From: Escherichia coli
GTDB lineage: Bacteria; Pseudomonadota; Gammaproteobacteria; Enterobacterales; Enterobacteriaceae
Assembly (NCBI RefSeq): GCF_003019035.1
Contig: NZ_CP027447.1
Length of the DNA: 64,000 bases
Reading direction: 5' to 3' (one strand)
Shown piece after piece: positions 33,213 to 61,880 of this stretch (its first letter is position 1; every line of letters begins with the position of its first letter). Below the pieces are notes generated by a model. The model worked only from the letters and a program-made list of their open reading frames with translations, was not told the DNA's origin and searched no databases. The translations under genes and the position numbers were made by a program.

Positions 33213-33297
33213 ATCTTACGCACTGGCTTGACGGCACCACGCAGACTTATATCATTTGGATGAATCGATAAATTTCACAAGTGGCTAAGGAGAAAGT

Positions 33298-34496: not shown

Positions 34497-34676
34497 GTCT
34501 GGCCTCGATAAAATAATGATGGTGATGTTATCAATACTATCGAAAACAGCCCGAAGCAACGGATTCCTCGATGAAATTATTGCGTGCTGCAGAGGGGATG
34601 TGACGGCTGCAAACAAAACCATTCCTGCGAGCCTGCTACTATTGATGGATTCATGCCAAAAGCACAGGAGAGCATT

Positions 34677-35714: not shown

Positions 35715-35912
35715 AGATACGACGGCGGCATAAAGCCGCCATAAAAATCCAGGCAAAAAGCTTATTTTCAGCTTTAATTAACTAACCACGTCATTGTTCT
35801 GCTGCTAATAACAACAAAGGTGAGTGGTTTATGATTATTCACTTTAATACACCAGGTGAACTCCTTCTGCCATGCAGGCAGGGTTGGACAGAAAACACGC
35901 GAAGGAATTAAA

Positions 35913-36578
35913 ATGCCTGGAACGGGAAAAATGAAACATGTCAGTTTGACTCTGCAGGTTGAGAACGACCTGAAACATCAGCTTAGTATTGGCGCATTAA
36001 AACCTGGCGCACGCCTGATTACTAAAAATCTGGCGGAGCAATTAGGTATGAGTATTACACCTGTGCGTGAAGCATTATTACGTCTGGTTTCGGTGAATGC
36101 GCTTTCTGTCGCACCAGCGCAAGCATTTACAGTTCCGGAAGTGGGGAAACGTCAATTAGACGAAATCAATCGGATCCGCTACGAGCTGGAATTAATGGCA
36201 GTTACTCTGGCTGTTGAAAACCTCACCCCGCAAGACCTGGCGGAACTCCAGGAATTGCTTGAGAAATTACAGCAGGCGCAAGAAAAGGGCGACATGGAAC
36301 GAATCATTAATGCGAGCAGGCTATTTCGCTTAGCAATTTATCATCGTTCAAATATGCCCATTCTGTGTGAGATGATTGAGCAACTGTGGGTCAGGATGGG
36401 ACCTGGTTTACATTATCTCTATGAAGCGATTAATCCAGCGGAATTACGGGAGCGTATAGCAAACTATCATCTATTACTCGCCACGCTAAAAGCAAAAGAC
36501 AAAGAGGGATGCAGACATTGTCTTGCTGAAATTATGCAACAGAATATTGCTATTCTATACCAGCAATACAATCGTTAA
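35913..36578 (+). CDS. mcbR: GntR-family transcriptional regulator
   Basis: ORF 35856-36578; start at MPGTGKMKHVSL gives 221 aa; GntR HTH plus FCD domain. Confidence 0.88.
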   Translation: MPGTGKMKHVSLTLQVENDLKHQLSIGALKPGARLITKNLAEQLGMSITPVREALLRLVSVNALSVAPAQAFTVPEVGKRQLDEINRIRYELELMAVTLAVENLTPQDLAELQELLEKLQQAQEKGDMERIINASRLFRLAIYHRSNMPILCEMIEQLWVRMGPGLHYLYEAINPAELRERIANYHLLLATLKAKDKEGCRHCLAEIMQQNIAILYQQYNR

Positions 36579-36584
36579 ATTAAA

Positions 36585-36604
36585 TGCCCGGCAAATGCCG
36601 GGCA
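36585..36604. terminator. Bidirectional hairpin between convergent mcbR and yncD
   Basis: tgcccggca-aat-gccgggca inverted repeat. Confidence 0.55.
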
Positions 36605-36613
36605 TCAAGGTAA

Positions 36614-38716: not shown

Positions 38717-38957
38717 GAAAAAAGCCAGGTTAAGAATGGGAAAACGCCGTCATGGTAATGAAATTGTAAATTTATGGAAAATGAAACGGCACAATACGTT
38801 AAGTAATTGAGAAAATTGTAGTCGTAACGGCAAGAAATGCTCCACATTTGAGAAAATAATGATTACCATTCCCATTTATAACAAGAGCGTAACGATGATT
38901 ACGCTTAGCGAAGCATTGTGAAGCAGCAAAAATATCGGTTCATCAAAGGGAGTCGTC

Positions 38958-40019
38958 ATGCATTTACGTCATCTGTTTTCATTGCGCCTGCGTGGTTCAT
39001 TACTGTTAGGTTCATTGCTTGTTGCTTCATCATTCAGTACGCAGGCCGCAGAAGAAATGCTGCGTAAAGCGGTAGGTAAAGGTGCCTACGAAATGGCTTA
39101 TAGCCAGCAAGAAAACGCGCTGTGGCTCGCCACTTCGCAAAGCCGCAAACTGGATAAAGGTGGCGTGGTTTATCGTCTTGATCCGGTCACTCTGGAAGTG
39201 ACGCAGGCGATCCATAACGATCTCAAGCCGTTTGGTGCCACCATCAATAACACGACTCAGACGTTGTGGTTTGGTAACACCGTAAATAGTGCGGTCACGG
39301 CGATAGATGCCAAAACGGGCGAAGTGAAAGGACGTCTGGTGCTTGATGAGCGTAAACGTACCGAAGAAGTGCGTCCGTTGCAGCCGCGTGAGCTGGTAAC
39401 TGATGATGCCACGAACACCGTTTACATCAGTGGTATTGGTAAAGAGAGCGTGATTTGGGTCGTTGATGGCGAGAATATCAAACTGAAAACCGCCATCCAG
39501 AACACCGGTAAAATGAGTACCGGTCTGGCGCAGGATAGCAAAGGCAAACGTCTTTACACCACTAACGCTGACGGCGAATTGATTACCATCGACACCGCCG
39601 ACAATAAAATCCTCAGCCGTAAAAAGCTGCTGGATGACGGCAAAGAGCACTTCTTTATCAACATCAGCCTTGATACCACCAATCAGCGTGCATTTATCAC
39701 CGATTCTAAAGCGGCAGAAGTGTTAGTGGTTGATACCCGTAATGGCAATATTCTTGCGAAGGTTGCGGCACCGGAATCACTGGCTGTGCTGTTTAACCCA
39801 GCGCGTAATGAAGCCTACGTGACGCATCGTCAGGCAGGTAAAGTCAGTGTGATTGACGCGAAAAGCTATAAAGTGGTGAAAACGTTCGATACGCCGACTC
39901 ATCCGAACAGCCTGGCGCTGTCTGCAGATGGCAAAACGCTGTATGTCAGTGTGAAACAAAAATCCACTAAACAGCAGGAAGCTACCCAGCCGGACGATGT
40001 GATTCGTATTGCGCTGTAA
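38958..40019 (+). CDS. yncE: Secreted beta-propeller protein YncE
   Basis: 353-aa ORF with signal peptide; repeated propeller-blade motifs. Confidence 0.88.
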   Translation: MHLRHLFSLRLRGSLLLGSLLVASSFSTQAAEEMLRKAVGKGAYEMAYSQQENALWLATSQSRKLDKGGVVYRLDPVTLEVTQAIHNDLKPFGATINNTTQTLWFGNTVNSAVTAIDAKTGEVKGRLVLDERKRTEEVRPLQPRELVTDDATNTVYISGIGKESVIWVVDGENIKLKTAIQNTGKMSTGLAQDSKGKRLYTTNADGELITIDTADNKILSRKKLLDDGKEHFFINISLDTTNQRAFITDSKAAEVLVVDTRNGNILAKVAAPESLAVLFNPARNEAYVTHRQAGKVSVIDAKSYKVVKTFDTPTHPNSLALSADGKTLYVSVKQKSTKQQEATQPDDVIRIAL

Positions 40020-40102
40020 TAGATATGGCGAGGGTGAAAACGGAGAGACTTGCCTGACTTTTATCACGCCGTATCCGGCACCTTCGTCAGTAATTTGAAT
40101 TT

Positions 40103-40127
40103 GCCCGGCACGTAGCCGGGCAATTTT
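40103..40127 (+). terminator. Possible hairpin terminator in the yncE-ansP convergent gap
   Basis: gcccggc-acgta-gccgggc followed by aatttt. Confidence 0.4.
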
Positions 40128-40131
40128 GCAA

Positions 40132-41631
40132 TTAACTCGCCGTTTCAGGCTTAAACACAATTTCCTGTTGTTCTTCATCTTCCTCGACGACTGGCGCAGT
40201 GCTGTGAATTTCAGCAACGCGTTTGCGCACACCAAACCAGCCTATAACCAGCAGAATACCGATAATCGGCAGCGCCGCGATAGTATAAGTCCCGTTCGGG
40301 TAATCGAACGCCATCAGCACCAGAACACTCAGTAAAAACAGTAATGTCAGCCAGGAAGTGAAGGGCGCGCCAGGCAGTTTAAAACTGACATCCGCTGCTT
40401 TGCCTTCTTTAATCGCTTTACGCAGGCGCATCTGGCACACGATGATAAACGCCCATGAAGCGATGATTCCCAGCGACGCGAAGTTCAACACAATCTCAAA
40501 TACGCGCGACGGCACCAGATAGTTGAGGAATACGCCGACGACATACACAACCAGTGTCGCCAGAATCCCGGCATACGGCACATGCTGACGACTCATTTTC
40601 GCCATAAAACTCGGTGCGGAACCGCCCATCGCCATTGAGCGCAGAATGCGTCCGGTGCAGTACAGACCTGAATTCAGGCTGGAGAGGGCAGCGGTCAGCA
40701 CCACAATGTTCATAATGCTGCCGATATATGGCACACCCAGTTTAGAGAAAAACGTCACGAACGGACTTTGCCCCGCCTGATACGCGCTCCACGGCAATAA
40801 CATAACCAGCAACACCACGGAGCCGACGTAAAACAGGCCAATACGCCAAATCACACTGTTAATGGCTTTAGGCACCATGGTCTGCGGATCTTTACATTCT
40901 CCGGCAGCTGTCCCCACCATTTCAATGGAGGCAAAAGCAAACACTACGCCCTGAATCAACACCAGCGCAGGCAGCAAACCGTGGGGGAAGAAGCCGCCAT
41001 TATCGGTGATTAAATGAAAGCCAGTGGTGTTGCCATCCAGCGGCTGACCACTACCGAGGAACACTGTACCCACGACCAAAAAGGTCACAATGGCGAGCAC
41101 TTTAATAAGCGCAAACCAGAACTCCATCTCCGCAAACCATTTCACACCGATCATATTCATGGTGCCAACGATGGTAAGTGCAGCGAGCGCAAAGACCCAC
41201 TGCGGCACGCCGCCAAACGCACCCCAGTAATGCATATACAGAGCGACGGCGGTAATATCAACAATCCCCGTCATCGCCCAGTTGATGAAGTACATCCAGC
41301 CAGCAACATAAGCGGCTTTCTCACCCAAAAACTCACGGGCATAAGAGACAAAACTGCCACTGGAAGGGCGGTGTAGCACCAGCTCACCCAATGCACGCAG
41401 AATAAAAAACGAAAACAAGCCACAAATTAAATAAACCAGTGCCAGTGCTGGACCCGCCATTTGCAGTCGGGCTCCTGCACCTAAAAACAAGCCGGTGCCA
41501 ATCGCGCCGCCAATGGCGATCATCTGTACCTGGCGATTGCCCATCGCTTTGTGATACCCCTCTTCGTGGGCATTAAGCCAGCGGCGTTTCGCGGCGTGTT
41601 GATCTGAAGTGTCGGTGTCGTGTTTACTCAT
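40132..41631 (-). CDS. ansP: L-asparagine permease (APC family)
   Basis: ORF 40132-41682; start at MSKHDTDTSDQHAAKRRWLNAHEEGYHKAMGNRQVQMIAIGG gives 499 aa. Confidence 0.9.
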   Translation of the reverse strand: MSKHDTDTSDQHAAKRRWLNAHEEGYHKAMGNRQVQMIAIGGAIGTGLFLGAGARLQMAGPALALVYLICGLFSFFILRALGELVLHRPSSGSFVSYAREFLGEKAAYVAGWMYFINWAMTGIVDITAVALYMHYWGAFGGVPQWVFALAALTIVGTMNMIGVKWFAEMEFWFALIKVLAIVTFLVVGTVFLGSGQPLDGNTTGFHLITDNGGFFPHGLLPALVLIQGVVFAFASIEMVGTAAGECKDPQTMVPKAINSVIWRIGLFYVGSVVLLVMLLPWSAYQAGQSPFVTFFSKLGVPYIGSIMNIVVLTAALSSLNSGLYCTGRILRSMAMGGSAPSFMAKMSRQHVPYAGILATLVVYVVGVFLNYLVPSRVFEIVLNFASLGIIASWAFIIVCQMRLRKAIKEGKAADVSFKLPGAPFTSWLTLLFLLSVLVLMAFDYPNGTYTIAALPIIGILLVIGWFGVRKRVAEIHSTAPVVEEDEEQQEIVFKPETAS

Positions 41632-41897
41632 TGCTCTCCCTGATTGCTTTAATGAAAAAGTCATATAAGTTGCCATGAACAATGTTTATTCATCCTGGCG
41701 ATGATAGTTATCACCATTATTCTTTATGGGTATAAAACTATCGGCGCAGCATCCTACCCGTTATCGATAAACGATGCAAAACATCCCCTTACAATCCTGA
41801 AGGGGAATAATACAACTGACGAAAAAATGACAAATCCTTTTGCTGGTTAACCTGTGTACTGTCCTACACTTAATCTTTAAAAGATTGTGAGGGGCAT

Positions 41898-42515
41898 ATG
41901 ATTAAGGTGTATGGCGTACCCGGATGGGGCTCTACAATCAGTGAGCTGATGCTAACACTGGCTGATATTCCTTATCAGTTCTTTGATGTCAGTGGTTTTG
42001 ACCACGAGGGAACTTCACGCGAGTTATTGAAAACCCTGAACCCGTTGTGTCAGATTCCGACACTGGCGCTGGAAAATGACGAGATTATGACGGAGACAGC
42101 GGCGATTGCATTGATGGTTCTCGATCGTCGCCCGGACCTTGCGCCACCGGTTGGGCGCGCCGAACGTCAGCAGTTTCAACGGCTATTGGTCTGGCTGGTT
42201 GCTAATGTCTATCCAACATTCACTTTCGCCGATTACCCTGAGCGTTGGGCTCCTGACGCACCTGAACAGTTAAAGAAGAATGTTATTGAATATCGAAAAT
42301 CGCTTTATATCTGGTTGAATTCGCAGCTCACTGCTGAACCTTATGCGTTTGGTGAGCAACTAACGCTGGTGGACTGTTATCTTTGCACTATGCGCACATG
42401 GGGGCCTGGGCATGAATGGTTTCAGGATAATGCCACGAATATCAGTGCGATTGCTGATGCTGTATGTCAGTTACCGAAATTACAAGAAGTATTAAAAAGG
42501 AATGAAATTATTTGA
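41898..42515 (+). CDS. yncG: Glutathione S-transferase-like protein
   Basis: 205-aa ORF; GST N- and C-domain features. Confidence 0.85.
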   Translation: MIKVYGVPGWGSTISELMLTLADIPYQFFDVSGFDHEGTSRELLKTLNPLCQIPTLALENDEIMTETAAIALMVLDRRPDLAPPVGRAERQQFQRLLVWLVANVYPTFTFADYPERWAPDAPEQLKKNVIEYRKSLYIWLNSQLTAEPYAFGEQLTLVDCYLCTMRTWGPGHEWFQDNATNISAIADAVCQLPKLQEVLKRNEII

Positions 42516-42590
42516 GTGGGATACCAGAAGATTATGTTATTTATTATTCAGTAACTTTATCCACAATGATGGGCGTAATTAATTAAATTC

Positions 42591-42803
42591 ATGTTATGTT
42601 TTTTAATTTATATCACTCTCCCTTTCATTCAGCTTGTCTATTTCATTTCCTCTGAAAAGAAACTAACTATTCACATTGTGCAGATGTTTCAGTTGTTATC
42701 ACAGGTATTCTATAATCTCAAAATGTTTTTAATGATGGATATGCTCGGAGTTGGAGATGCAATTAATATTAATACAAATAAAAATATCCGGCAGGTATGC
42801 TAA
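42591..42803 (+). CDS. yncH: Small hypothetical protein YncH (AT-rich)
   Basis: 70-aa ORF in an AT-rich interval; position after yncG. Confidence 0.55.
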   Translation: MLCFLIYITLPFIQLVYFISSEKKLTIHIVQMFQLLSQVFYNLKMFLMMDMLGVGDAININTNKNIRQVC

Positions 42804-43623
42804 AAGGATAAATGGCGTTCTCTGTATTTATTCGCAATTATCTGTAGGACAAATATGGAGAGCTTGATGAGTCAGAGCTAAAACAGCAATTGATTAATAA
42901 ACATGTTGATTTATTCAAGAAAATGGATGTATTTTAAATATTGATTCTTAATATAACCTAATCAATAGATTATCACGTGAGAGCTGCACATTATTGGAGG
43001 GGCAGGGGAAAACACCATTTTGGGAACAATGCATCAGGTACTCTTACCACTGAAGCAAGATCATCCGGGCACCAGGTGGTGGTGCAGTGCTTTGGAAATG
43101 GTCCCCTCGGGGGAGTTGTCATTATTTTCTATGCTATTTGCTTATTATATTCATCAGGTGAATTTAATAAATTCCTAATTTGAAATATCCACTATTAAGC
43201 TAGTGTTTAACGACGTTAAGATGGCAATGTGCAGATCATGTTATCAGGGTGGGGCGGTAGCGTATATTCCTTATACAAACCATCATTCATTTCAATGATT
43301 GTTATTGAATTATTTATTGTTGTGAATAAAAAGACATTATGAATATTGGTTTGACTTTGCATATCAGGTTTTTTATTACTCGCTGTAATGTACGAGCCTG
43401 TCGTGAATAACGTCGAGAACCCATCCGTTGCGTTTGTGATTATTTTGTTGACTAAACAGACACCCGTTTCTCTGAAGTAAAATCCCAGACTAAATCATCA
43501 CATAACCATGACATTTTTCTGATATTCCCCGGTAACGCCAGATGTCGACTCGCTTATCTCATCCGCCCGACATGTTGTACATGCAATATGTGCGGATTAT
43601 TATTCATTTTCACGGAGGTTGCT

Positions 43624-45732
43624 ATGTCAACCGGATTACGTTTCACGCTGGAAGTGGACGGCCTGCCACCGGACGCGTTTGCGGTGGTTTCCTTTCATCT
43701 CACCCAGTCACTCTCTTCACTTTTTTCCCTTGACCTTTCTCTGGTCAGTCAGCAGTTTCTCTCCCTTGAATTTGCGCAGGTGCTGGACAAAATGGCCTAC
43801 CTGACGGTATGGCAGGGCGATGACGTACAGCGCCGGGTGAAAGGCGTGGTGACCTGGTTTGAACTCGGGGAGAACGACAAAAACCAGATGCTGTACAGCA
43901 TAAAGGTGCGCCCGCCGCTGTGGCGGGCAGGACTGCGTCAGAACTTCCGTATCTTCCAGAACGAGGACATCAGAAGCATCCTCGGCACCATACTGCAGGA
44001 AAATGACGTCACGGAGTGGAGTCCGCTGTTCAGCGAGCCGCATCCTTCCCGTGAGTTTTGTGTCCAGTACGGCGAAACCGATTACGATTTCCTGTGCCGG
44101 ATGGCGGCGGAGGAAGGCATCTTCTTTTATGAGGAGCACGCGCAAAAAAGTACCGACCAGAGCCTGGTCCTGTGCGACACCGTGCGTTATCTGCCGGAGT
44201 CCTTTGAGATCCCCTGGAATCCGAACACCCGTACCGAGGTGAGCACCCTATGCATCAGCCAGTTCCTCTACAGCGCACAAATCCGCCCATCTTCCGTGGT
44301 GACCAAAGACTACACCTTTAAACGACCCGGCTGGGCAGGGCGTTTTGATCAGGAAGGCCAGCACCAGGATTACCAGCGCACACAGTATGAAGTGTATGAC
44401 TACCCCGGACGTTTCAAGGGTGCCCACGGGCAGAACTTTGCCTGCTGGCAGATGGATGGCTGGCGAAACAACGCAGAAGTGGCGCGCGGAACAAGCCGTT
44501 CGCCGGAGATATGGCCGGGACGGCGAATTGCGCTGACGGGGCATCCGCAGGCGAACCTGAACCGGGAATGGCAGGTGGTGGCAAGTGAACTGCACGGCGA
44601 GCAGCCGCAGGCGGTGCCGGGACGCAGTGGTTCAGGTACCACGCTGAATAACCACTTTGCGGTAATACCGGCAGACAGAACATGGCGGCCACAGCCGTTG
44701 CTGAAACCGCTGGTGGACGGCCCGCAGAGCGCCGTCGTGACGGGACCGGCAGGAGAAGAAATCTTCTGTGATGAACATGGCCGCGTGCGGGTGAAATTTA
44801 ACTGGGACCGTTATAACCCGTCAAACCAGGACAGTTCATGCTGGATCCGTGTGGCACAGGCGTGGGCAGGCACCGGGTTTGGTAACCTGGCGATACCGCG
44901 TGTGGGTCAGGAGGTCATTGTGGACTTCCTCAACGGCGATCCGGACCAGCCGATTATTATGGGGCGCACCTACCACCAGGAAAACCGCACCCCCGGCAGC
45001 CTGCCGGGAACAAAGACGCAAATGACCATTCGTTCAAAAACCTATAAGGGCAGCGGGTTTAATGAACTGAAGTTTGACGATGCGACAGGGAAAGAACAGG
45101 TCTACATCCACGCGCAGAAGAACATGAACACCGAGGTGCTGAATAACCGCACCACGGATGTGATAAACAACCATGCTGAGACCATCGGCAACAATCAGGT
45201 GATTGCGGTTACCAACAATCAGATACAGACGGTGGGCGTTAACCAGATAGAGACGGTGGGCAGTAACCAGATCATTAAAGTGGGCTCTGTTCAGGTGGAA
45301 ACGATTGGACTTGTTCGTGCGCTGACTGTGGGCGTGGCGTATCAGACGACGGTAGGTGGCATTATGAACACCTCGGTGGCCCTGATGCAGTCCTCGCAGA
45401 TCGGTTTGCATAAATCGTTGATGGTCGGGCTGGGTTATGACGTCAAAGTCGGAAATAACGTTACCTTCACCGTTGGTAAAACGAAAAAGGATGATACCGG
45501 GCAGACCGCGATTTACTCCGCCGGTGAGCATCTGGAACTCTGCTGTGGTAAGGCAAGGCTGGTGCTGACTAAGGACGGACAAATTTTTCTCAACGGCACA
45601 AAAATTCATTTGCAGGGTAAGGAGCAGGTTAATGGTGACTCACTGTTGATTAACTGGAACTGTGCAGCCTCGAAATCCCCACCGAAGACCCCTGATGAAA
45701 AGCAGGATACGCCGGATATGAGAGAGTACTGA
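43624..45732 (+). CDS. vgrG: Type VI secretion spike protein VgrG (orphan, no other T6SS core genes in window)
   Basis: ORF 43588-45732; start at MSTGLRFTLEVDGL with SD ggagg upstream; gp27/gp5-like N-terminus and C-terminal beta-helical repeats (VIAVTNNQIQTVGVNQIETVGSNQIIKVG). Confidence 0.9.
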   Translation: MSTGLRFTLEVDGLPPDAFAVVSFHLTQSLSSLFSLDLSLVSQQFLSLEFAQVLDKMAYLTVWQGDDVQRRVKGVVTWFELGENDKNQMLYSIKVRPPLWRAGLRQNFRIFQNEDIRSILGTILQENDVTEWSPLFSEPHPSREFCVQYGETDYDFLCRMAAEEGIFFYEEHAQKSTDQSLVLCDTVRYLPESFEIPWNPNTRTEVSTLCISQFLYSAQIRPSSVVTKDYTFKRPGWAGRFDQEGQHQDYQRTQYEVYDYPGRFKGAHGQNFACWQMDGWRNNAEVARGTSRSPEIWPGRRIALTGHPQANLNREWQVVASELHGEQPQAVPGRSGSGTTLNNHFAVIPADRTWRPQPLLKPLVDGPQSAVVTGPAGEEIFCDEHGRVRVKFNWDRYNPSNQDSSCWIRVAQAWAGTGFGNLAIPRVGQEVIVDFLNGDPDQPIIMGRTYHQENRTPGSLPGTKTQMTIRSKTYKGSGFNELKFDDATGKEQVYIHAQKNMNTEVLNNRTTDVINNHAETIGNNQVIAVTNNQIQTVGVNQIETVGSNQIIKVGSVQVETIGLVRALTVGVAYQTTVGGIMNTSVALMQSSQIGLHKSLMVGLGYDVKVGNNVTFTVGKTKKDDTGQTAIYSAGEHLELCCGKARLVLTKDGQIFLNGTKIHLQGKEQVNGDSLLINWNCAASKSPPKTPDEKQDTPDMREY

Positions 45733-45798
45733 TCCCGTACCTGTTCAGTATTCAGTAACAAACAAGCATTAAAAATAAACAGAAGAAGGAATTGAATC

Positions 45799-45815
45799 AT
45801 GAGCGGAAAACCAGC
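45799..45815 (+). pseudogene. 5' stub of an rhs gene (start codon plus about 5 codons) truncated by an H-repeat element
   Basis: atgagcggaaaacc matches the first 14 nt of the intact rhs at 53550 (atgagcggaaaacccgcg...), followed directly by the H-repeat left end cagggaaagatca at 45816. Confidence 0.7.
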
Positions 45816-47106
45816 CAGGGAAAGATCATCAGAAGTACACTTTTTGTACTAAACAATTCGCATTTTATGTTTAAAAATTGAGATATTCCTCATTACCTGA
45901 AGCTGTTTTTTATTGCTTATACATGATCAAATACTCCTTACATAATTAAGGAGAACAAAATGGAACTTAAAAAATTGATGGAGCATATTTCTATTATCCC
46001 CGATTACAGACAAGCCTGGAAAGTGGAACATAAATTATCGGACATTCTACTGTTGACTATTTGTGCCGTTATTTCTGGTGCAGAAGGCTGGGAAGATATA
46101 GAGGATTTTGGGGAAACACATCTCGATTTTTTGAAGCAATATGGTGATTTTGAAAATGGTATTCCTGTTCACGATACCATTGCCAGAGTTGTATCCTGTA
46201 TCAGTCCTGCAAAATTTCACGAGTGCTTTATTAACTGGATGCGTGACTGCCATTCTTCAGATGATAAAGGCGTCATTGCAATTGATGGAAAAACGCTCCG
46301 GCACTCTTATGACAAGAGTCGCCGCAGGGGAGCGATTCATGTCATTAGTGCGTTCTCAACAATGCACAGTCTGGTCATCGGACAGATCAAGACGGATGAG
46401 AAATCCAATGAGATTACAGCTATCCCAGAACTTCTTAACATGCTGGATATTAAAGGAAAAATCATCACAACTGATGCGATGGGTTGCCAGAAAGATATTG
46501 CAGAGAAGATACAAAAACAGGGAGGTGATTATTTATTCGCTGTAAAAGGAAATCAGGGGCGGCTTAATAAAGCCTTTGAGGAAAAATTTCCACTGAAAGA
46601 ATTAAATAATCCAGAGCATGACAGTTACGCAATGAGTGAAAAGAGTCACGGCAGAGAAGAAATCCGTCTTCACATTGTTTGCGATGTCCCTGATGAACTT
46701 ATTGATTTCACGTTTGAATGGAAAGGTCTGAAGAAATTATGCGTGGCAGTCTCCTTTCGGTCAATAATAGCAGAACAAAAGAAAGAGCCAGAAATGACGG
46801 TCAGATATTATATCAGTTCTGCTGATTTAACCGCAGAGAAGTTCGCCACAGCAATCCGAAACCACTGGCACGTGGAGAATAAGCTGCACTGGCGTCTGGA
46901 CGTGGTAATGAATGAAGACGACTGCAAAATAAGAAGAGGAAACGCCGCAGAATTATTTTCAGGGATACGGCACATCGCTATTAATATTTTAACGAATGAT
47001 AAGGTATTCAAGGCAGGGTTAAGACGTAAGATGCGAAAAGCTGCCATGGACAGAAACTATCTCGCGTCAGTCCTTGCGGGGAGCGGGCTTTCGTAATCTT
47101 TCCCTG
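45816..47106 (+). mobile_element. H-repeat (ISAs1-family) element, copy A, 1291 bp
   Basis: Terminal inverted repeats cagggaaaga (left) and tctttccctg (right); encodes a 378-aa transposase; nearly identical to copies at 50594-51884 and 58348-59638. Confidence 0.85.
45960..47096 (+). CDS. ISAs1-family transposase (H repeat-associated protein, YdcC/YhhI-like)
   Basis: 378-aa ORF with SD aaggag; three near-identical copies in the window. Confidence 0.88.
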
Positions 47107-48889
47107 GCTGCTGGAGTTCACGCGCGACCGCCTGCACCGGGAGACGGTGCGCAGCTTCGGCAGCATGGCAGGCAGTAATGCCGCATACGAACTGACCAGC
47201 ACATACACCCCCGCAGGCCAGTTACAGAGCCAGCACCTGAACAGCCTGGTATATGACCGTGACTACGGGTGGAGTGACAACGGCGACCTGGTGCGCATCA
47301 GCGGCCCGCGACAGACGCGGGAATACGGCTACAGCGCCACGGGCAGGCTGGAGAGTGTGCGCACCCTCGCACCGGACCTGGACATCCGCATCCCGTATGC
47401 CACGGACCCGGCGGGCAACCGGCTGCCGGACCCGGAGCTGCACCCGGACAGTACACTCACAGTGTGGCCGGATAACCGAATCACCGAAGACGCGCACTAC
47501 CTGTACCGTTACGATGAATACGGCAGGCTGACGGAGAAGACGGACCGCATCCCGGCGGGTGTGATACGGACGGACGACGAGCGGACCCACCACTACCGCT
47601 ACGACAGCCAGCACCGCCTGGTGTTCCACACGCGGATACAGCATGGCGAGCCACTGGTCGAGAGCCGCTACCTCTACGACCCGCTGGGACGGCGAATGGC
47701 AAAACGGGTCTGGCGGCGGGAGCGTGACCTGACGGGGTGGATGTCGCTGTCGCGTAAACCGGAGGAGACATGGTACGGGTGGGACGGCGACAGGCTGACG
47801 ACGGTGCAGACTGACACCACACGTATCCAGACGGTCTACCAGCCGGGGAGCTTCACGCCGCTCATCCGTATCGAGACAGAGAACGGCGAACGGGAGAAAA
47901 TGCAACGCCGCAGCCTGGCGGAGAAGTTACAGTCGGAAGGGAGTGAGGACGGTCACGGTGTGGTGTTCCCGGCTGAGCTGGTGAGGATGCTGGACAGGCT
48001 GGAGGAAGAAATCCGGGCAGACCGCGTGAGCAGTGAAAGCCGGGCGTGGCTTGCGCAGTGCGGGCTGACGGTGGAGCAACTGGCCAGACAGGTGGAGCCG
48101 GAATACACACCGGCGCGAAAAGTTCATTTTTACCACTGCGACCACCGGGGCCTGCCGCTGGCGCTCATCAGCGAAGACGGCAATACGGTGTGGAGCGGGG
48201 AGTATGATGAATGGGGCAACCAGCTTAATGAGGAGAACCCGCATCATGTGTATCAGCCATACCGCCTGCCGGGGCAGCAGTATGATGAGGAGTCGGGGCT
48301 GTACTATAACCGCAACCGGTACTATGATCCGTTGCAGGGGAGGTATATTACCCAGGATCCGATTGGGCCGGTGGGGGGGTGGAATCCCTATAGTTATGTG
48401 CTTATTAATCCAGCCCAGTTTATTGACCCAACAGGTTTAACTCAAGAGGACAATTGGACCTATGGTGAGGTAGGTAATAGCTGTGTTACGAGTCAACGCG
48501 ATTTTACTCCCCCGCCCGGACTTGCGGATATGAAAGCCAGCATTGGCGCTGCCTGCTCAAGAAACAATGCTTCCAGAAACTGCCACCCCGTAGATGGTAG
48601 TAATGCTTCTGCACCATCGGATAAAGCCGCATGGGAAAATATTCAAAATGCGACAAATGGTAAAGATTTATCTGGTGGTGGAAATATGTTTTGTGTAGGA
48701 AATGAGGACTGTGCGGTTGTTCATAGCTGTCGTGAAATAGTTAATGCTCGACACCCGGCAGGACGAGTGCGTGAACGTGTAACTCCGTTAACAACGTCAG
48801 GAACAGCAACGCTCAATGGAACAACAGTTTACTTTTATAATGATCCCCGGAATGGCAATTGTCCTGCTCACGAATATATTCCTCAATAA
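47107..48889 (+). pseudogene. rhsE: Orphan Rhs 3' fragment (rhsE-like): distal core repeats plus a divergent C-terminal toxin tip; no native start codon
   Basis: Begins abruptly at the right end of H-repeat copy A; 47107-48355 is collinear, without indels, with 55994-57242 of the intact rhs (about 93% amino-acid identity); DPIGP motif at 48356-48370; unique C-terminal about 173 codons. Confidence 0.8.
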
Positions 48890-48939
48890 AGAAAAGTGGC
48901 CAGACTAAGCTCTAGCCACATTTTTTGGAGATCCTTTTC

Positions 48940-49563
48940 ATGAAAAGGTTTTTTATAACATGTTGCGTTATGACATTATTTTTATTTGTTAAATGTAAAG
49001 CAGCGTGTGTAACTTCCTTATATGAGGTTCAGCAATCGCTCTTTACATACATTTATTTGATTAGACAAGACCCTGTTCATTTTGATTCATATATTAAGAA
49101 TGTGCATAACGAATTAAAAATATTCCATGATATTGATAAAGCAATGAATATAGCCTCAGATATGGTCAAAATTATTGATATAAAGACCCGTTTATCATTT
49201 AATAATGATTTATATATATTACAAGGGGAACGACAGTATGCAATAGTTAAGAGTGAAGGGGAAAGTAGTCAATTAAAATCATCAGCATTTATCATATCTA
49301 ATTACCCACTATTTAAAAACAAAGTTCTGTTAATTTTATCCGCTACTAGTCCCGTTCAGTTGGTTATATTGTCTTTTGATCAATGTCTTAATGTGGAGGT
49401 GTTATTTGATTCAATGTCTCCAGTTTTCGCTAAGTATAGAGAAGATATTAGTGCAACATTACCATTATGGAAGGTTATTTTGACAAAAAATGATATAGAA
49501 TTATATGAGTACCATAGAACAAATCCATACTCACTTAACAAATTATTGAGCATGTCAAAATAA
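48940..49563 (+). CDS. Putative immunity protein for the orphan Rhs-CT (AT-rich, signal-peptide-like N-terminus)
   Basis: ORF 48925-49563 (TTG) or ATG at 48940 (MKRFFITCCVMTLFLFVKCKAAC...); directly downstream of the toxin tip; low GC. Confidence 0.6.
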   Translation: MKRFFITCCVMTLFLFVKCKAACVTSLYEVQQSLFTYIYLIRQDPVHFDSYIKNVHNELKIFHDIDKAMNIASDMVKIIDIKTRLSFNNDLYILQGERQYAIVKSEGESSQLKSSAFIISNYPLFKNKVLLILSATSPVQLVILSFDQCLNVEVLFDSMSPVFAKYREDISATLPLWKVILTKNDIELYEYHRTNPYSLNKLLSMSK

Positions 49564-49748
49564 CGGTCAAGTATTCAACGTTGTAATATTATTCCTTTTG
49601 CTGAGTGTCTCGAACGGCTAAAGTTGACGTAAAATGCCACGTTTTGTGGGCAAACCGAATCGGTTAAAAAGCATGGTCCGGGAAAAGCTTAACATCAGCG
49701 CTATCGGTGCCAAATGTGCAGCAGGCCTTTCCAGCCTGATTACCAGGG

Positions 49749-50004
49749 CAGGGCGGGATCGTGAATATTGTGATGCATATCACATGAACTCCTGGTTTTA
49801 ACTTATTATTTCGGTTAAAATTTAACCACTGAAATCATTAGGATTCGAGCAAAGGGACGGCATATGGATATTCAAAATTTACTGGATTATATTTCTATAA
49901 TTCCTGATTATCGTCAGCAAGGGAAAATAAGGCATAAATTGTCAGATATTTTATTGCTCACTATATGTGCTATTATTGCCGGTTCTGATGAATGGGAGGA
50001 TATT
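49749..50004 (+). mobile_element. Truncated H-repeat variant (fragment D): left end plus first about 47 codons of transposase
   Basis: IR-like cagggcgggatcgtga at about 49749; ORF start 49864 ([48 protein letters not shown]) interrupted by the next element. Confidence 0.65.
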
Positions 50005-50593
50005 CAGGGCAAGATCATGAAAATCGTGATGTAAATCACAATTTTCAACCTGGCTTTAACTCCTTCAGGAGATTAAAATTTAACCTATGGAATAACTAAA
50101 AAGATAAAAAAGGACGCCAGATGAGTATTCAAAGTTTGCTTGATTATATTTCAGTGTTCCCTGATATACGACAACAAGGAAAGGTTAAACATAAATTATC
50201 TGATATTTTGTTTCTCACCGTATGTGCAGTAATTGCAGGTGCCGATGAGTGGCAGGAAATTGAAGATTTTGGACATGAAAGACTGGAATGGCTAAAGAAA
50301 TATGGTGATTTTGATAATGGCATTCCGGTCGATGACACCATTGCACGCGTTGTGAGTAACATTGACAGTTTGGCCTTTGAAAAGATGTTTATTGAATGGA
50401 TGCAGGAGTGCCATGAAATCACTGATGGTGAAATTATAGCAATAGATGGAAAGACCATAAGAGGCTCCTTTGATAAGGGAAAAAGGAAAGGAGCAATCCA
50501 TATGGTGAGTGCATTCTCGACTGAAAATGGTGTTGTACTGGGGCAGGTGAAAACGGAAGCCAAAAGTAATGAGATTACAGCCATTCCAGAGTT
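50005..50593 (+). mobile_element. Truncated H-repeat variant (fragment E) inserted into fragment D and itself cut by copy B
   Basis: Left end cagggcaagatca at 50005; transposase N-terminal 158 codons (ORF 50121..., diverged from copies A-C) ending where the copy B left IR starts at 50594. Confidence 0.7.
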
Positions 50594-51884
50594 CAGGGAA
50601 AGATCATCAGAAGTACACTTTTTGTACTAAACAATTCGCATTTTATGTTTAAAAATTGAGATATTCCTCATTACCTGAAGCTGTTTTTTATTGCTTATAC
50701 ATGATCAAATACTCCTTACATAATTAAGGAGAACAAAATGGAACTTAAAAAATTGATGGAACATATTTCTATTATCCCCGATTACAGACAAGCCTGGAAA
50801 GTGGAACATAAATTATCGGATATTCTACTGTTGACTATTTGTGCCGTTATTTCGGGTGCAGAAGGCTGGGAAGATATAGAGGATTTTGGGGAAACACATC
50901 TCGATTTTTTGAAGCAATATGGTGATTTTGATAATGGTATTCCTGTTCACGATACCATTGCCAGAGTTGTATCCTGTATCAGTCCTGCAAAATTTCACGA
51001 GTGCTTTATTAACTGGATGCGTGACTGCCATTCTTCAGATGATAAAGACGTCATCGCAATTGATGGAAAAACACTCCGGCATTCTTATGACAAGAGTCGC
51101 CGCAGGGGAGCGATTCATGTCATTAGTGCGTTCTCAACAATGCACAGTCTGGTCATCGGACAGATCAGGACGGATGAGAAATCCAATGAGATCACAGCTA
51201 TCCCTGAACTTCTTAACATGCTGGATATTAAAGGAAAAATTATCACAACTGATGCAATGGGTTGCCAGAAAGATATTGCAGAGAAGATACAAAAACAGGG
51301 CGGTGATTATTTATTCGCTGTAAAAGGAAATCAGGGTCGGCTAAATAAAGCCTTTGAGGAAAAATTCCCACTGAAAGAATTAAATAATCCAGAACATGAC
51401 AGTTACGCAATGAGTGAAAAGAGTCACGGCAGAGAAGAAATCCGTCTTCACATTGTTTGCGATGTCCCTGATGAACTTATTGATTTCACGTTTGAATGGA
51501 AAGGTCTGAAGAAATTATGCGTGGCAGTCTCCTTTCGGTCAATAATAGCAGAACAAAAGAAAGAGCCAGAAATGACGGTCAGATATTATATCAGTTCTGC
51601 TGATTTAACCGCAGAGAAGTTCGCCACAGCAATCCGAAACCACTGGCACGTGGAGAATAAGCTGCACTGGCGTCTGGACGTGGTAATGAATGAAGACGAC
51701 TGCAAAATAAGAAGAGGAAACGCCGCAGAATTATTTTCAGGGATACGGCACATCGCTATTAATATTTTGACGAATGATAAGGTATTCAAGGCAGGGTTAA
51801 GACGTAAGATGCGAAAAGCTGCCATGGACAGAAACTATCTCGCGTCAGTCCTTGCGGGGAGCGGGCTTTCGTAATCTTGCCCTG
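50594..51884 (+). mobile_element. H-repeat (ISAs1-family) element, copy B, 1291 bp
   Basis: Same IRs and length as copy A. Confidence 0.85.
50738..51874 (+). CDS. ISAs1-family transposase (H repeat-associated protein)
   Basis: 378-aa ORF, a few substitutions relative to copy A. Confidence 0.88.
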
Positions 51885-51896
51885 CTTTGTAATGGT

Positions 51897-52079
51897 ATGG
51901 CAGGAGGATATGAATTTGCAGTAAGTAAATTTGGTCAGTCGGCCTATGATGCCGCACAGGAAAAAGCATTAAATAACTATATGGAATTTGAAATGTTAGA
52001 TTTATTACAAAGCATGGGAGAGAATGTCAATCCAGATGAATATAAGCAGGCGCATGATAGAGTTGTTAATCCAAATTGA
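51897..52079 (+). CDS. Small ORF (60 aa) starting just outside the copy B right end; possibly the 3' remnant of a toxin tip
   Basis: ORF 51852-52079 begins inside the IS right end; first ATG outside the IS at 51897 (MAGGYEFAVSKFG...); stop overlaps the next gene. Confidence 0.35.
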   Translation: MAGGYEFAVSKFGQSAYDAAQEKALNNYMEFEMLDLLQSMGENVNPDEYKQAHDRVVNPN

Positions 52080-52093
52080 ATGCAGAGGGGAGT

Positions 52094-52657
52094 ATGTTAT
52101 TAAAACTGATAATGTTATTTTCAATATTTTTTATCCCGTTTTTGGCAGGTTGCAGTATGTTTGATGATGTTTTTGAGAAAAACTACTCATTGAGTTCTGT
52201 CGCCAGTTTTCCAGATGACGTTGATGAATTAAAAGAAATATGGTTTTTTTGTGAAAGATGTTTAAGTGATGAGCAGTGCGAAAATCATGACATTAAACAA
52301 TGTAGAGATGTAACTATTCCCGGTAGAGATGAAGCATTAAGTAAAGCTGTAGGCAGAGCCAATGTCGAAGCTGTTTACTTTCTTGTTGATGTGGCAAAAA
52401 CTGATGTCAATGGTATTACAGGTAAATATAAGGAAACACCATTAATTATTGCTGCATATTATGGAACTCAAGCACATCAGGATATAGCTGAATTTTTGCT
52501 ATTGCATGGGGCAGATATTAATAAAACTTACCCAGCCATTGGGCGAAATCCTCTAGGTGTCGCCAGATGGAAGCATAATGTCGATTTCGTTAATTTTCTA
52601 CTGAAGCATGGTGCTGAACCAGCAGTACATATGGGGTCGATTGAGAATAAAGAGTGA
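52094..52657 (+). CDS. Ankyrin-repeat lipoprotein (candidate immunity protein)
   Basis: ORF 52076-52657; ATG at 52094 preceded by gagggga; lipobox FLAGC; ankyrin-like repeats (TPLIIAAYYGTQAHQDIAEFLLLHGADIN, NPLGVARWKHNVDFVNFLLKHGAEP). Confidence 0.7.
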   Translation: MLLKLIMLFSIFFIPFLAGCSMFDDVFEKNYSLSSVASFPDDVDELKEIWFFCERCLSDEQCENHDIKQCRDVTIPGRDEALSKAVGRANVEAVYFLVDVAKTDVNGITGKYKETPLIIAAYYGTQAHQDIAEFLLLHGADINKTYPAIGRNPLGVARWKHNVDFVNFLLKHGAEPAVHMGSIENKE

Positions 52658-53100
52658 GATTTAACAAAAATGCAATTCATGCTCTCGCCTTGGGTGACGG
52701 TATTGATACTGCTTTTAAGTGTTCAGGAAAAATGGAAAGTGGTAAACCCTTAAAATCTTCGGGCAAATGGGATTACTCTGTTGGTGGGACAAATGGTGCC
52801 TTTCTTTATCTTAAAGACTATTCAAATATTTTGACGGCTGGCCACACAGGAAATCTGGCAGTTACTTTTCTTGGAAGTTACAATGCTCAATATTCAATAA
52901 ACGGAAACTCTCTGGATGTAGTTGTAACAAATTCTTCAACGATACAATCAGCGACACATCCCCCAATCCTGGAGTATACAAAATGGTGGCAGGATAATAT
53001 TGGTAATCCTTTGGATAGAAAATTTCAAAAAGGTCCCACGTCCCCAAAAACACAAACCATAAATTTACACTTTGATTTGTCATGTGCGTGCAAAAAATGA
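52654..53100 (+). CDS. Hypothetical protein, translationally coupled to flanking genes
   Basis: GTG at 52654 overlaps the upstream stop; alternative ATG at 52732; stop overlaps the downstream ATG (atga) at 53097. Confidence 0.5.
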   Translation: MRFNKNAIHALALGDGIDTAFKCSGKMESGKPLKSSGKWDYSVGGTNGAFLYLKDYSNILTAGHTGNLAVTFLGSYNAQYSINGNSLDVVVTNSSTIQSATHPPILEYTKWWQDNIGNPLDRKFQKGPTSPKTQTINLHFDLSCACKK

Positions 53101-53480
53101 AAATTTTATTTATGTTATTATTAATTATCTTGAGTGGATGTGATGGCGAAAATGATGCCAAATTTGTTGGGCAATGGCTTGCTGATATTGATGGTGATAT
53201 AAAATCAGAATTGATCGTGAAGGCAAATGGAATTTTTTATTTCAAGAATATGCCTATGGAGACAGTTTGTCGCGAGGATAAAACATATAAGGCTAATTTT
53301 TTCGGGGATTGGACTATTAATATTGACAATAGGATTGATATTTCAATGGATAATGTTAATTCTGAACGGTGTAATATTCCATCCTCGTATTTAATTAATG
53401 GGTTTTATGATGGTGGATATTTTTTATGTCAGAAAGGATTGTCTTTTTTCCAGACGGACCTGATGAGCCAGGTAATATGA
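53097..53480 (+). CDS. Small lipoprotein (candidate immunity protein)
   Basis: ORF 53082-53480; ATG at 53097 (MKILFMLLLIILSGCDGEND) with lipobox LSGC; AT-rich. Confidence 0.6.
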   Translation: MKILFMLLLIILSGCDGENDAKFVGQWLADIDGDIKSELIVKANGIFYFKNMPMETVCREDKTYKANFFGDWTINIDNRIDISMDNVNSERCNIPSSYLINGFYDGGYFLCQKGLSFFQTDLMSQVI

Positions 53481-53549
53481 TCATTTATATTAAACAATGA
53501 AAGTATTGATCGTGAGCAGATTAAATATATAAGAAATTAAGGAGATACC

Positions 53550-56500
53550 ATGAGCGGAAAACCCGCGGCACGCCAGGGTGATGCCACGCTGAAAGGCGGT
53601 CCGATAGTCCAGGGGTCAGCGGGGGTGCTGATAGGCGCGCCCACCGGCGTGGCGTGCTCGGTGTGTCCGGGCGGGATGACTTCGGGCAACCCGGTAAATC
53701 CGCTGCTGGGGGCGAAGGTGCTGCCCGGCGAGACGGACCTTGCCCTGCCCGGCCCGCTGCCGTTCATTCTCTCCCGCACCTACAGCAGCTACCGGACGAG
53801 GACGCCTGCCCCGGTGGGCGTTTTCGGCCCCGGCTGGAAAGCGCCTTCGGATATCCGCTTACAGCTACGTGATGACGCACTGATACTCAACGACAACGGC
53901 GGGCGGAGCATTCACTTTGAGCCGCTGCTGCCGGGGGAGGCGGTGTACAGCCGCAGCGAGTCAATGTGGCTGGTGCGCGGTGGTAAGGCAGCGCAGCCGG
54001 ACGGCCACACGCTGGCGCGACTGTGGGGGGCGCTGCCGCCGGATATCCGGTTAAGCCCGCATCTTTACCTGGCGACCAACAGCGCACAGGGGCCGTGGTG
54101 GATACTCGGCTGGTCAGAGCGGGTGCCGGGTACTGAGGACGTACTGCCAGCGCCGCTGCCGCCGTACCGGGTGCTTACCGGGCTGGCGGACCGCTTCGGG
54201 CAGACGCTGACGTACCGGCGTGAGGCCGCCGGTGACCTGGCCGGGGAAATCACCGGCGTGACGGACGGTGCCGGGCGGAAGTTCCGTCTGGTGCTGACCA
54301 CGCAGGCGCAGCGTGCGGAAGAGGCCCGCACCTCTTCGCTATCTTCTTCTGACCGTTCCCGCCCTCTCTCAGCCTCAGCGTTCCCCGACACACTGCCCGG
54401 TACGGAATACGGCCCCGACAGGGGCATCCGTCTTTCGGCGGTGTGGCTGATGCACGACCCGGCATACCCGGAAAGCCTGCCCGGTGCGCCACTGGCGCGG
54501 TACACGTATACGGAAGCCGGTGAACTGCTGGCGGTATATGACCGCAGCAATACGCAGGTGCGCGCTTTCACGTATGACGCGCAGCACCCGGGCCGGATGG
54601 TGGCGCACCGTTACGCGGGAAGGCCGGAGATGCGCTACCGCTACGACGATACGGGGCGGGTGGTGGAGCAACTGAACCCGGCAGGGTTAAGCTACCGCTA
54701 TCTTTATGAGCAGGACCGCATCACCATCACGGACAGCCTGAACCGGCGAGAGGTGCTGCATACAGAAGGCGGGGCCGGGCTGAAGCGGGTGGTGAAAAAA
54801 GAACTGGCGGACGGCAGCGTCACGCACAGCGGGTATGACGCGGCAGGAAGGCTCACGGCACAGACGGACGCGGCGGGACGGCAGACAGAGTACGGTCTGA
54901 ATGTGGTGTCAGGCGATATCACGGACATCACCACGCCGGACGGGCGGGAGACGAAATTTTACTATAACGACGGGAACCAGGTGACGGCAGTGGTGTCCCC
55001 GGACGGGCTGGAGAGCCGCCGGGCGTATGATGAGCGGGACAGGCTGGTAACGGAGACATCGCGCAGTGGGGACGTCATCCGGTATGCTTATGATAATCCG
55101 CACAGTGAATTACCGGCCACGACAACAGATGCGACGGGCAGCACCCGGCAGATGACCTGGAGCCGCTACGGGCAGTTGCTGGCGTTCACCGACTGCTCGG
55201 GCTACCAGACCCGCTATGAATACGACCGCTTCGGCCAGATGACGGCGGTCCACCGCGAGGAAGGCATCAGCCTTTACCGCCGCTATGACAACCGTGGCCG
55301 GTTAACCTCGGTGAAAGACGCACAGGCCCGTGAAACGCAGTATGAGTACAACGCCGCAGGCGACCTGACTGCCGTTATCACCCCGGATGGCAACCGGAGT
55401 GAGACACAGTACGATGGGTGGGGAAAGGCCATCAGCACCACGCAGGGCGGGCTGACGCGCAGTATGGAGTACGATGCTGCCGGACGTATCACCACGCTGA
55501 CTAACGAGAACGGCAGCCACAGCGACTTTAGTTACGATGCGCTGGACCGCCTGATACAGCAGGGCGGCTTTGACGGGCGGACGCAACGTTATCATTATGA
55601 CCTGACCGGAAAACTCACGCAGAGTGAAGATGAGGGGCTTGTCATCCTCTGGTACTACGATGAATCGGACCGTATTACTCACCGCACGGTAAACGGTGAA
55701 CCGGCAGAACAGTGGCGGTATGACGGCCACGGCTGGCTGAGAGAAATCAGCCACCTGAGCGAAGGCCACCGTGTTGCCGTCCACTATGGCTATGATAATA
55801 AAGGCCGCCTGACCAGTGAGCGCCAGACGGTGCATCACCCGGAGACGGGAGAGCTGCTCTGGCAGCATGAGACCGGACATGCGTACAACGAACAGGGGCT
55901 GGCAAACCGCGTCACGCCGGACAGTCTGCCGCCGGTGGAGTGGCTGACCTATGGTAGCGGTTATCTGGCAGGCATGAAGCTGGGCGGGACGCCGCTGCTG
56001 GAGTTCACGCGCGACCGCCTGCACCGTGAGACGGTGCGCAGCTTCGGCAGCATGGCAGGCAGTAATGCCGCATACGAACTGACCAGCACATACACCCCTG
56101 CAGGCCAGTTACAGAGTCAGCACCTGAACAGCCTGGTGTATGACCGTGACTACGGGTGGAATGACAACGGAGACCTGGTGCGCATCAGCGGCCCGCGACA
56201 GACGCGGGAATACGGCTACAGCGCCACGGGCAGGCTGGAGAGTGTGCGCACCCTCGCACCGGACCTGGACATCCGCATCCCGTATGCCACGGACCCGGCG
56301 GGCAACCGGCTGCCGGACCCGGAGCTGCACCCGGACAGTACACTCACAGTGTGGCCGGATAACCGCATCGCGGAGGATGCGCACTATGTCTACCGCCACG
56401 ATGAATACGGCAGGCTGACGGAGAAGACGGACCGCATCCCGGCGGGTGTGATACGGACGGACGACGAGCGGACCCACCACTACCACTACGACAGCCAGCA

Positions 56501-61867: not shown

Positions 61868-61880
61868 TTTATGTCAGGTT

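Follow-up and report, generated by a model that had tools for sequence, protein, structure and literature searches.

We describe here a 64,000-nucleotide (nt) stretch of Escherichia coli DNA (RefSeq assembly GCF_003019035.1, contig NZ_CP027447.1; called the window below), in which the rhs gene linked to vgrG, the gene of the T6SS (type VI secretion system) spike protein, has very probably lost its head in association with an insertion sequence (IS), the H-repeat. Next to an intact vgrG, only a 17-nt rhs start stub is left; a complete H-repeat (copy A) follows it, and beyond the H-repeat the rhs sequence resumes as a headless 3′ fragment with its toxin tip, named CT1 here, and a presumed immunity gene. 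By the annotation of the SCU-301, PCN033, and K-12 records, this is the E. coli RhsE locus, which is flanked by yncG-yncH and yddH-nhoA. The parts of the locus described from vgrG to H-repeat C are on the plus strand.

vgrG and the Start Stub of the Linked rhs Gene

The vgrG gene is intact: its open reading frame (ORF) of 714 aa covers 43588–45732 (RefSeq-style start at 43624; TGA stop codon at 45730–45732) with no internal stop, and a profile search matches the product to TIGR03361 over 1–512 of 513 positions (E = 2e-187), i.e., a full-length TssI/VgrG. The ATG at 45799 is the 67th base past this stop codon, leaving a spacer of 66 nt (45733–45798) that includes the ribosome-binding region (…GAAGGAATTGAATC); it is the native vgrG-rhs spacer, with one mismatch compared to PCN033, and it is colinear in strains PCN033, EcPF16, 2824, YZMc3-1, and D8. 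The stub itself (45799–45815; ATGAGCGGAAAACCAGC) corresponds to nt 1–17 of a vgrG-linked, rhsE-type gene: it is identical over 17/17 nt to the native start of the vgrG-linked rhs of PCN033, and its first 14 nt (45799–45812) are also those of the intact rhs gene that starts at 53550. In the five strains, the colinear stretch takes in vgrG, the spacer, and nt 1–17 of rhs, and it ends exactly at 45815; because of this common end point and of the identity with PCN033, the stub is not a chance ATG. Its reading frame runs on into the IS up to 45852, which gives a 17-residue read-through peptide (MSGKPARERSSEVHFLY, then a stop). The original prediction, made from the sequence of the window, of an rhs-type start sharing 14 nt with the intact rhs and running after about 17 nt into a left inverted repeat was correct in its coordinates, and the match to PCN033 bears out that the stub is an rhs start.

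H-Repeat Copy A and Its Junctions

Copy A (45816–47106; 1,291 bp) is a complete, ISEc1-like element of the ISAs1 family. It has the inverted repeats and the unit length of about 1.29 kb of this family, with perfect 11-bp terminal repeats (CAGGGAAAGAT/ATCTTTCCCTG; left repeat at 45816–45826, right repeat at 47096–47106) whose complementarity reaches 15 nt into the flanks; it also has a full-length transposase, encoded by an open 378-aa ORF (45960–47096) that matches NF033564 over 1–314 of 314 positions (417 bits). Two other copies lie downstream in direct orientation, copy B at 50594–51884 and copy C at 58348–59638, with 98.5% and 97.4% identity to copy A, respectively, by BLAST; the three copies differ from one another at 20–36 sites. 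Copy A is structurally no different from the H-repeat (H-rpt) of Rhs elements and is notable for its position alone; the H-repeats described by the Hill laboratory reportedly share its features, namely 1,291 bp, 11-bp inverted repeats, a 378-aa ISAs1 transposase, and a location inside an Rhs element.

The 10 nt to the left of copy A (GAAAACCAGC) differ from the 10 nt to its right (GCTGCTGGAG), so there is no 10-bp target duplication; copy A is, therefore, not a simple insertion, and its flanks represent two separate H-repeat junctions that have since been joined. Indeed, none of the three copies has a target duplication, and each joins unrelated sequences. The choice offered by the original prediction between an insertion plus adjacent deletion and a recombination between two copies was, thus, the right frame.

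Simple insertions of the same element, in the same orientation and inside an rhs gene, do exist in other strains. EcPF16 has one in the rhsE core at nt 2386–2395 (record L005, 7810–9100), with a 10-bp duplication (GTGGAGTGGC), at a point 50–59 nt upstream of the right junction of the window; ET490 has another one in a different PAAR-Rhs gene (record L011, 3810–5100), again with a 10-bp duplication (GCTGCTCCCC). Both keep the two halves of the gene and the duplication, whereas in the window 2,427 nt are gone and there is no duplication. The clean duplications in EcPF16 and ET490 are sequence evidence that ISEc1/H-repeat transposes; the E. coli W genome paper, which mentions H-rpt, states that transposition of the H-repeat has not been observed experimentally (PMC3032704).

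A side observation concerns the breakpoints in the rhs core, which cluster within nt 2209–2454 (window equivalents 55758–56003): the end of the K-12 deletion at nt 2209, an orphan bounded by an H-repeat at nt 2348, the EcPF16 insertion at nt 2386–2395, and the junction of the window at nt 2445. This cluster may reflect a target preference or the chance of sampling.

The Headless rhs Fragment, Its Toxin Tip, and the Putative Immunity Gene

To the right of copy A, the rhs sequence resumes at 47107 and runs to 48889, with the core ending at about 48439, the CT1 tip at 48440–48886, and then the stop codon; the frame is read from 47108 and is not in register with that of the transposase. The alignment of 47107–48368 with 55994–57255 of the intact rhs is free of gaps (93.7% identity) and sets 47107 at rhs nt 2445; the resumption point of about nt 2445 given in the original prediction is exact, and the missing core, then estimated at about 2.4 kb, measures 2,427 nt (nt 18–2444; 815 codons). 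What is kept of an rhsE-type gene amounts to its final 1,783 nt, i.e., the end of the core and the toxin tip. Against the NF041261 RHS_core model, 47108–48889 scores 937 bits over positions 820–1261 of 1261, which is below the curated cut-off of 2000 bits for a full-length core, while the core end is recognized by TIGR03696 (E = 2e-24; residues 366–444) and by PF03527 (RHS; E = 1.6e-17). The fragment has neither a start codon of its own nor an N-terminal PAAR-like/DUF6531 region linked to vgrG. In the full-length orthologue of YZMc3-1, the residues lost here (1–815) include a weak match to the PAAR motif and DUF6531, both within residues 1–123, and most of the RHS repeats. Compared to nt 2445–4227 of this YZMc3-1 gene, the fragment is 97.1% identical, without gaps and open throughout; of the codons that differ, 30 do so synonymously and 17 non-synonymously. 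The RefSeq annotation of SCU-301 flags the fragment as an incomplete RHS protein lacking its N-terminus.

The CT1 tip, a Cys-rich stretch of 149 aa preceded by the conserved motif DPIGPVGG, matches no Pfam or NCBIfam family, and neither does the 197-aa putative immunity protein encoded by the intact gene that follows at 48970–49563, to which a function is assigned from its position alone; this protein has only two differences (99% identity) with the product of the gene following the full-length rhs in YZMc3-1. When scanned for promoters reading outward from the IS into the fragment, the sequence had a site count not above that of shuffled sequence, and no site lay close to where the IS ends on the right.

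As the N-terminus and most of the shell are lost, the fragment would be unable to act as a T6SS effector. With no start, no PAAR-like/DUF6531 N-terminus, and about one third of the YD-repeat shell, it would be neither made nor loaded on VgrG; it would rather persist as an orphan toxin/immunity cassette, in which the toxin and immunity roles are putative and the immunity gene may still be useful. Its 1.26 kb of core, at 93.7% identity, would also be available for tip-swapping with the intact rhs downstream; two papers invoke such 3′ core-plus-tip substrates for tip exchange (PMC2935791; PMC7043789). This intact rhsE-type gene (53550–57803; 1,417 aa) has a different toxin tip and matches RHS_core over 1–1261 of 1261 positions (2717 bits); it is the only full-length rhs at the locus, its N-terminus is of the same type as those of vgrG-linked genes, and it is probably the one now served by the intact vgrG.

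Uninterrupted Relatives

Strains 2824 and YZMc3-1 have an uninterrupted arrangement, vgrG-rhs(CT1)-immunity gene-IS1′. Both are colinear with the window up to 45815 (about 97.9% identity) and again over 47107–49710 (97.7%), and they share with it the tip, the gene downstream, and the IS1 fragment. Position 47107 corresponds to rhs nt 2445 in YZMc3-1; the 2824 gene has 9 nt more, which puts the equivalent position at nt 2454. The identity of 47107–49710 to these two strains (97.7%) is on par with that of the flanks and above the 93.7% found with the paralogous intact rhs of the window. Because the two relatives match both sides of the H-repeat, the simplest reading is that nt 18–2444 of the vgrG-linked gene have been replaced by the IS. 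The comparison with an uninterrupted vgrG-rhs pair had been proposed along with the original prediction, and its outcome supports the claim made there that the H-repeat splits the vgrG-linked rhs into a start stub and a headless 3′ fragment.

Distribution of the Junctions and Lineage of the Window

We screened 5,426 complete E. coli genomes, the set to which all genome counts in this study refer. The left junction (end of vgrG, stub, left end of the H-repeat) is found in 83 of them, of the ST648 type, 40 of which are listed at 100% identity; the right junction (right end of the H-repeat followed by rhs nt 2445) is found in a single one, SCU-301. A candidate second carrier of the nt-2445 junction, GPEC1040, was rejected, its fragment starting at about core nt 1176 and at another locus. 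In 80–82 of the 83 left-junction genomes, the DNA to the right of the same H-repeat is unrelated to that of the window.

This ST648-type allele (82 complete genomes; e.g., ST648, MS6198, ECONIH1, WB61) has the same vgrG, 17-nt stub, and H-repeat as the window, without any difference, but the H-repeat is followed by AT-rich, unrelated DNA with a 150-aa ORF, then by a second H-repeat and pptA; there is neither an rhs 3′ fragment nor an intact rhs. WB61 was considered as a third arrangement and proved to be of the ST648 type. We looked for the origin of this right-flank DNA among E. coli genomes and found it to be essentially confined to the ST648 lineage. Of the nine H-repeat copies examined, copy 1 of ST648 has no difference with copy A over 1,291 bp, whereas the others differ from it at 20–43 sites.

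The similarity extends to the left of the IS: the window and ST648 differ by two mismatches only over 40171–47106 (99.97%; 6.9 kb), as against 272 over 31716–40170 (8.4 kb). The near-identical block comprises the 3′ part of ansP, yncG, yncH, vgrG, the stub, and H-repeat A, and it ends at or in the IS; the flank to its left is about 2.8% divergent from every complete genome except SCU-301. Such near-identity on a divergent background indicates that the ansP-vgrG-stub-H-repeat block moved between lineages by homologous recombination, with a right crossover within the H-repeat since the DNA beyond it is unrelated in ST648. As for the window itself, 34000–40100 is 100% identical to SCU-301, the next best of the complete genomes reaching 97.2%, and yddH-nhoA (60300–61900) has about 94–96% identity to six comparison strains; these identities suggest a source in a divergent lineage that has seldom been sampled.

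How the Lesion May Have Arisen

To explain the two joined junctions, we lean, with about even confidence, towards a recombination between H-repeat copies, probably during an import of ST648-type DNA. One H-repeat junction would have formed at rhs nt 17 and another one at nt 2445, in the target GCTGCTGGAG, and homologous recombination between the two copies would have removed the DNA between them; the probable setting is the inter-lineage import of the ansP-vgrG-stub-H-repeat block, with the right crossover inside the H-repeat. In favor of this scenario, the left junction occurs in 83 genomes and the right one in SCU-301 only, the ST648-identical block ends at the IS, and copies B and C likewise lack duplications and join unrelated sequences; several results weigh against it. 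Two synthetic queries, one joining the right end of the H-repeat to rhs nt 8 onwards and the other joining rhs nt 2355–2454 to the left end of the H-repeat, were each matched at ≥80% coverage in 0 of 5,426 genomes. No chimerism was found in copy A when nine copies were compared, and site 1286, which is only 5 nt short of the right end, differs between copy A and copy B as well as the copies of 2824, EcPF16, and K-12, so that a crossover would require a near-identical partner or have to fall at the extreme end. Copy A being non-chimeric, a test based on single-nucleotide polymorphisms cannot separate recombination from adjacent deletion. The event that separates the window from ST648 broke at the IS terminus or within a few bases of it, as predicted by an adjacent deletion due to the transposase, with which breakpoints exactly at the terminus agree just as well. 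Which way the ST648-type DNA was imported is hinted at only mildly, and not decisively, by identity to third genomes. Moreover, H-repeat B adjoins the tail of a different rhs gene (rhsX, see below), which lets the stub belong to that gene; with this tail on one side and an ST648-identical block that ends at the IS on the other, the stub and the fragment may not have belonged to one physical gene copy. The 56% matches to the second query (e.g., in E. coli 042), which looked like a reciprocal junction, were discarded as spurious, since they consist of 21 bp between two tandem ISAs1 elements.

One has to weigh other explanations, the most serious of which is a deletion in one step and in situ: an H-repeat inserted at nt 17 (or at nt 2445) would have deleted 2,427 nt by intramolecular transposition, with neither a second copy nor homologous recombination. 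We consider it doubtful, though several features speak for it: the breakpoints are exactly the two IS termini and there is no target duplication; copy A is not chimeric and is identical to the ST648 copy, which has the same left junction and another right flank, as expected from independent right-hand deletions starting from one fixed IS; the right flank GCTGCTGGAG resembles the ET490 target GCTGCTCCCC; and the simple insertions with 10-bp duplications indicate that the element transposes, even if transposition is stated not to have been observed experimentally (PMC3032704). However, the DNA at the right flank in ST648 is absent from the window and nearly absent from other E. coli, so that nested deletions from a common ancestor are not demonstrated; the block nearly identical to ST648 on a divergent background implies a homologous exchange ending in the IS; and the simple-insertion ancestor that this explanation calls for (right end of the H-repeat followed by rhs nt 8 onwards) is the very junction missing from the genomes screened.

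Alternatively, the stub could be what remains of the beginning of rhsX, which is the gene linked to vgrG in strain D8; the 17 nt of the stub can be assigned by their own sequence neither to the CT1 rhs nor to rhsX. The right end of H-repeat B adjoins the last 195 nt of the rhsX toxin tip (51885–52079; 64 codons, LCNGMAGGYEF…VVNPN and the stop), colinear with D8 and matching in translation the C-terminus of the D8 protein, which makes it a second IS-decapitated rhs at the locus. The block 45816–51884 would then have replaced rhsX nt 18–4008, e.g., as a segment bounded by H-repeats and integrated via a resident H-repeat, and, relative to D8, this one replacement would account for the left part of the locus: colinearity between D8 and the window extends over 37807–45815 (98.2%) and 51885–54510 (97.3%). 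In D8, rhsX is an intact gene linked to vgrG, with the same ankyrin-repeat gene and a second rhs behind it; the CT1-type rhs is that second gene and not the one next to vgrG. In addition, copies A and B lie in direct orientation and share 98.45% identity, and 2824, YZMc3-1, and D8 all have a downstream orphan made of an H-repeat and a headless rhs that starts at core nt 2348. We nevertheless judge this unlikely: in 2824 and YZMc3-1, the gene directly linked to vgrG is a CT1 rhs, to which the stub and the fragment both match; there is no difference between copy A and ST648 copy 1 anywhere, yet copy B departs from the latter at 20 sites, including 1286 near the right end, a pattern that does not fit a segment simply integrated into an H-repeat of the ST648 type already in place; the number of events needed is no smaller than with a single gene; and the rhsX-ankyrin module is rare (3 of 5,426 genomes). 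Whichever gene the stub came from, the functional conclusion is unchanged.

Two further explanations have far less in their favor. Downstream of rhs genes, one commonly finds fragments made of a partial core and a tip and accompanied by immunity genes (PMC2935791; PMC3032704), and the fragment of the window does keep a conserved core end and a distinct tip; it could, in principle, be an ordinary tip pushed downstream by a new one (C-terminal displacement), the H-repeat being incidental. This is very improbable, as the fragment (47107–48889) is upstream, not downstream, of the only full-length rhs (53550–57803), its 5′ boundary is the IS terminus to the base, and a start stub remains by vgrG at a position where the orthologous gene of 2824 is full-length. 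As to an assembly mis-join at the H-repeats, we give it hardly any credit, even though three nearly identical copies of 1.3 kb that all lie within 14 kb are a classic source of such errors: SCU-301, in which alone the right junction was found again, has a complete genome with the same order, colinear over 35500–54941, and copies A, B, and C differ at 20–36 sites, each with consistent flanks.

Some junctions would help to tell these histories apart, if found in other genomes. One of them is AAAACCAGC joined to CAGGGAAAGA. A simple insertion at nt 17, CTTTCCCTG followed by GAAAACCAGCGG, would support insertion then deletion, whereas one at nt 2445, GCTGCTGGAG followed by CAGGGAAAGA, would support the recombination between two copies that we favor; CTTTCCCTG followed by CTTTGTAATGG and preceded by the stub is the form expected if the stub is that of rhsX.

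Comparison with Known Rhs Loci

Rhs pseudogenes, relics, dissociated tips, and H-repeats have long been described (PMC2935791, Jackson et al. 2009; PMC3032704), and the lesion of the window is a new allele of a known kind, i.e., an ordinary IS-associated pseudogene in a classic rearrangement locus. The original prediction had compared it to the rhsE pseudogene of laboratory strains, with vgrG retained. Part of this likeness stands: K-12 rhsE (b1456; with ydcD, yncI, and the H-repeat ydcC) is at the same chromosomal locus, between yncH and yddH/nhoA, and consists of a headless 3′ core fragment, a toxin tip, and a downstream gene, with an H-repeat and yncI-like ISAs1 elements nearby; and vgrG is indeed kept in the window. 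The resemblance is, however, superficial. The K-12 fragment starts at core nt of about 2209 (nt 2445 in the window), vgrG is deleted from about 32 bp upstream of its ORF, there is neither an IS nor a start stub at the joint, the toxin tip is another one, and the immunity gene is ydcD instead of the gene for the 197-aa protein. Homology of K-12 to the window stops at 43556 and resumes at nt 2209 of the intact rhs, end points that are not those of the window; from these coordinates, the K-12 deletion is an independent event.

With orphan or dissociated Rhs tips, as presented in PMC2935791 and, for the Salmonella orphan rhs, in PMC7043789, the fragment shares a 3′ core end, a distinct tip, an adjacent presumed immunity gene, and the potential to recombine with a nearby full-length rhs; it differs from them in that it precedes the full-length gene, has an IS terminus as its boundary, and probably derives from a former vgrG-linked gene instead of having been pushed out by a new tip.

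For annotation purposes, the rhs next to vgrG is best labelled a pseudogene (or an orphan cassette) and left out of T6SS effector counts; the candidate effector is the full-length gene at 53550. The presumed immunity gene, which is kept, could protect against kin with a full-length CT1 toxin. Beyond annotation, the significance is small, although the locus illustrates, at base resolution, that H-repeat copies serve Rhs evolution as breakpoints and as portable homology. It is tempting to see in ISEc1/H-repeat an active remodeller of Rhs loci, which would prefer rhs genes, make headless toxin/immunity cassettes, and offer crossover points for vgrG-rhs exchange between distant lineages; this idea, based on H-repeat/rhs junctions clustered at nt 2348, 2386, and 2445 on the simple insertions at nt 2386–2395 and in another PAAR-Rhs gene, and, for the exchange, on the 6.9-kb ST648-identical block ending at the IS terminus, is a tentative one and less likely than not.

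Neighboring Features

From left to right, the window contains vgrG, the 17-nt stub, H-repeat A, the rhs 3′ fragment, the 197-aa presumed immunity gene, and debris of an IS1 and of a yncI-like ISAs1 element; then come H-repeat B, the 195-nt end of the rhsX tip, the ankyrin-repeat gene with two small ORFs, the full-length rhs with its downstream gene, H-repeat C, a GNAT gene, and yddH. The debris (49605–50593), identified through the annotation of SCU-301 and 2824, starts with an IS1 fragment (about 49605–49755) and is cut by H-repeat B. After the IS1 fragment, 49711–50593 consists of diverged, yncI-like ISAs1 pieces, with 50005–50593 matched by the yncI region of K-12; the ORF at 50121–50630 corresponds to positions 1–130 of 314 of the ISAs1 transposase, truncated by H-repeat B. 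Strains 2824 and D8 differ here: it is the IS1 fragment that an H-repeat breaks, at the equivalent of 49710.

Between the rhsX tip and the intact rhs, the ankyrin-repeat protein (52094–52657) and the two small ORFs (52094–53480 altogether) are presumed immunity or accessory genes; the same genes follow rhsX in D8. H-repeat C matches copies A and B, but its left end deviates from theirs at positions 14–25, and its first 25 nt (CAGGGAAAGATCACGTAACGCTGCT) are tandemly doubled, the extra copy (58323–58347) being directly upstream of 58348.

Compared to the window, about 970 bp of the second rhs are absent from the SCU-301 record (SCU-301 L001 19419/19410 vs. window 54942–55912), which also has many frameshifts at the locus; this gap could be a real deletion or an error of long-read assembly. 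Finally, the window has a 1.28-kb insertion between nhoA and yddE (61932–63207) relative to K-12, PCN033, 2824, and ST648, which encodes on the minus strand a 326-aa transposase of the IS110 family (62035–63015; NF033542, 252 bits).

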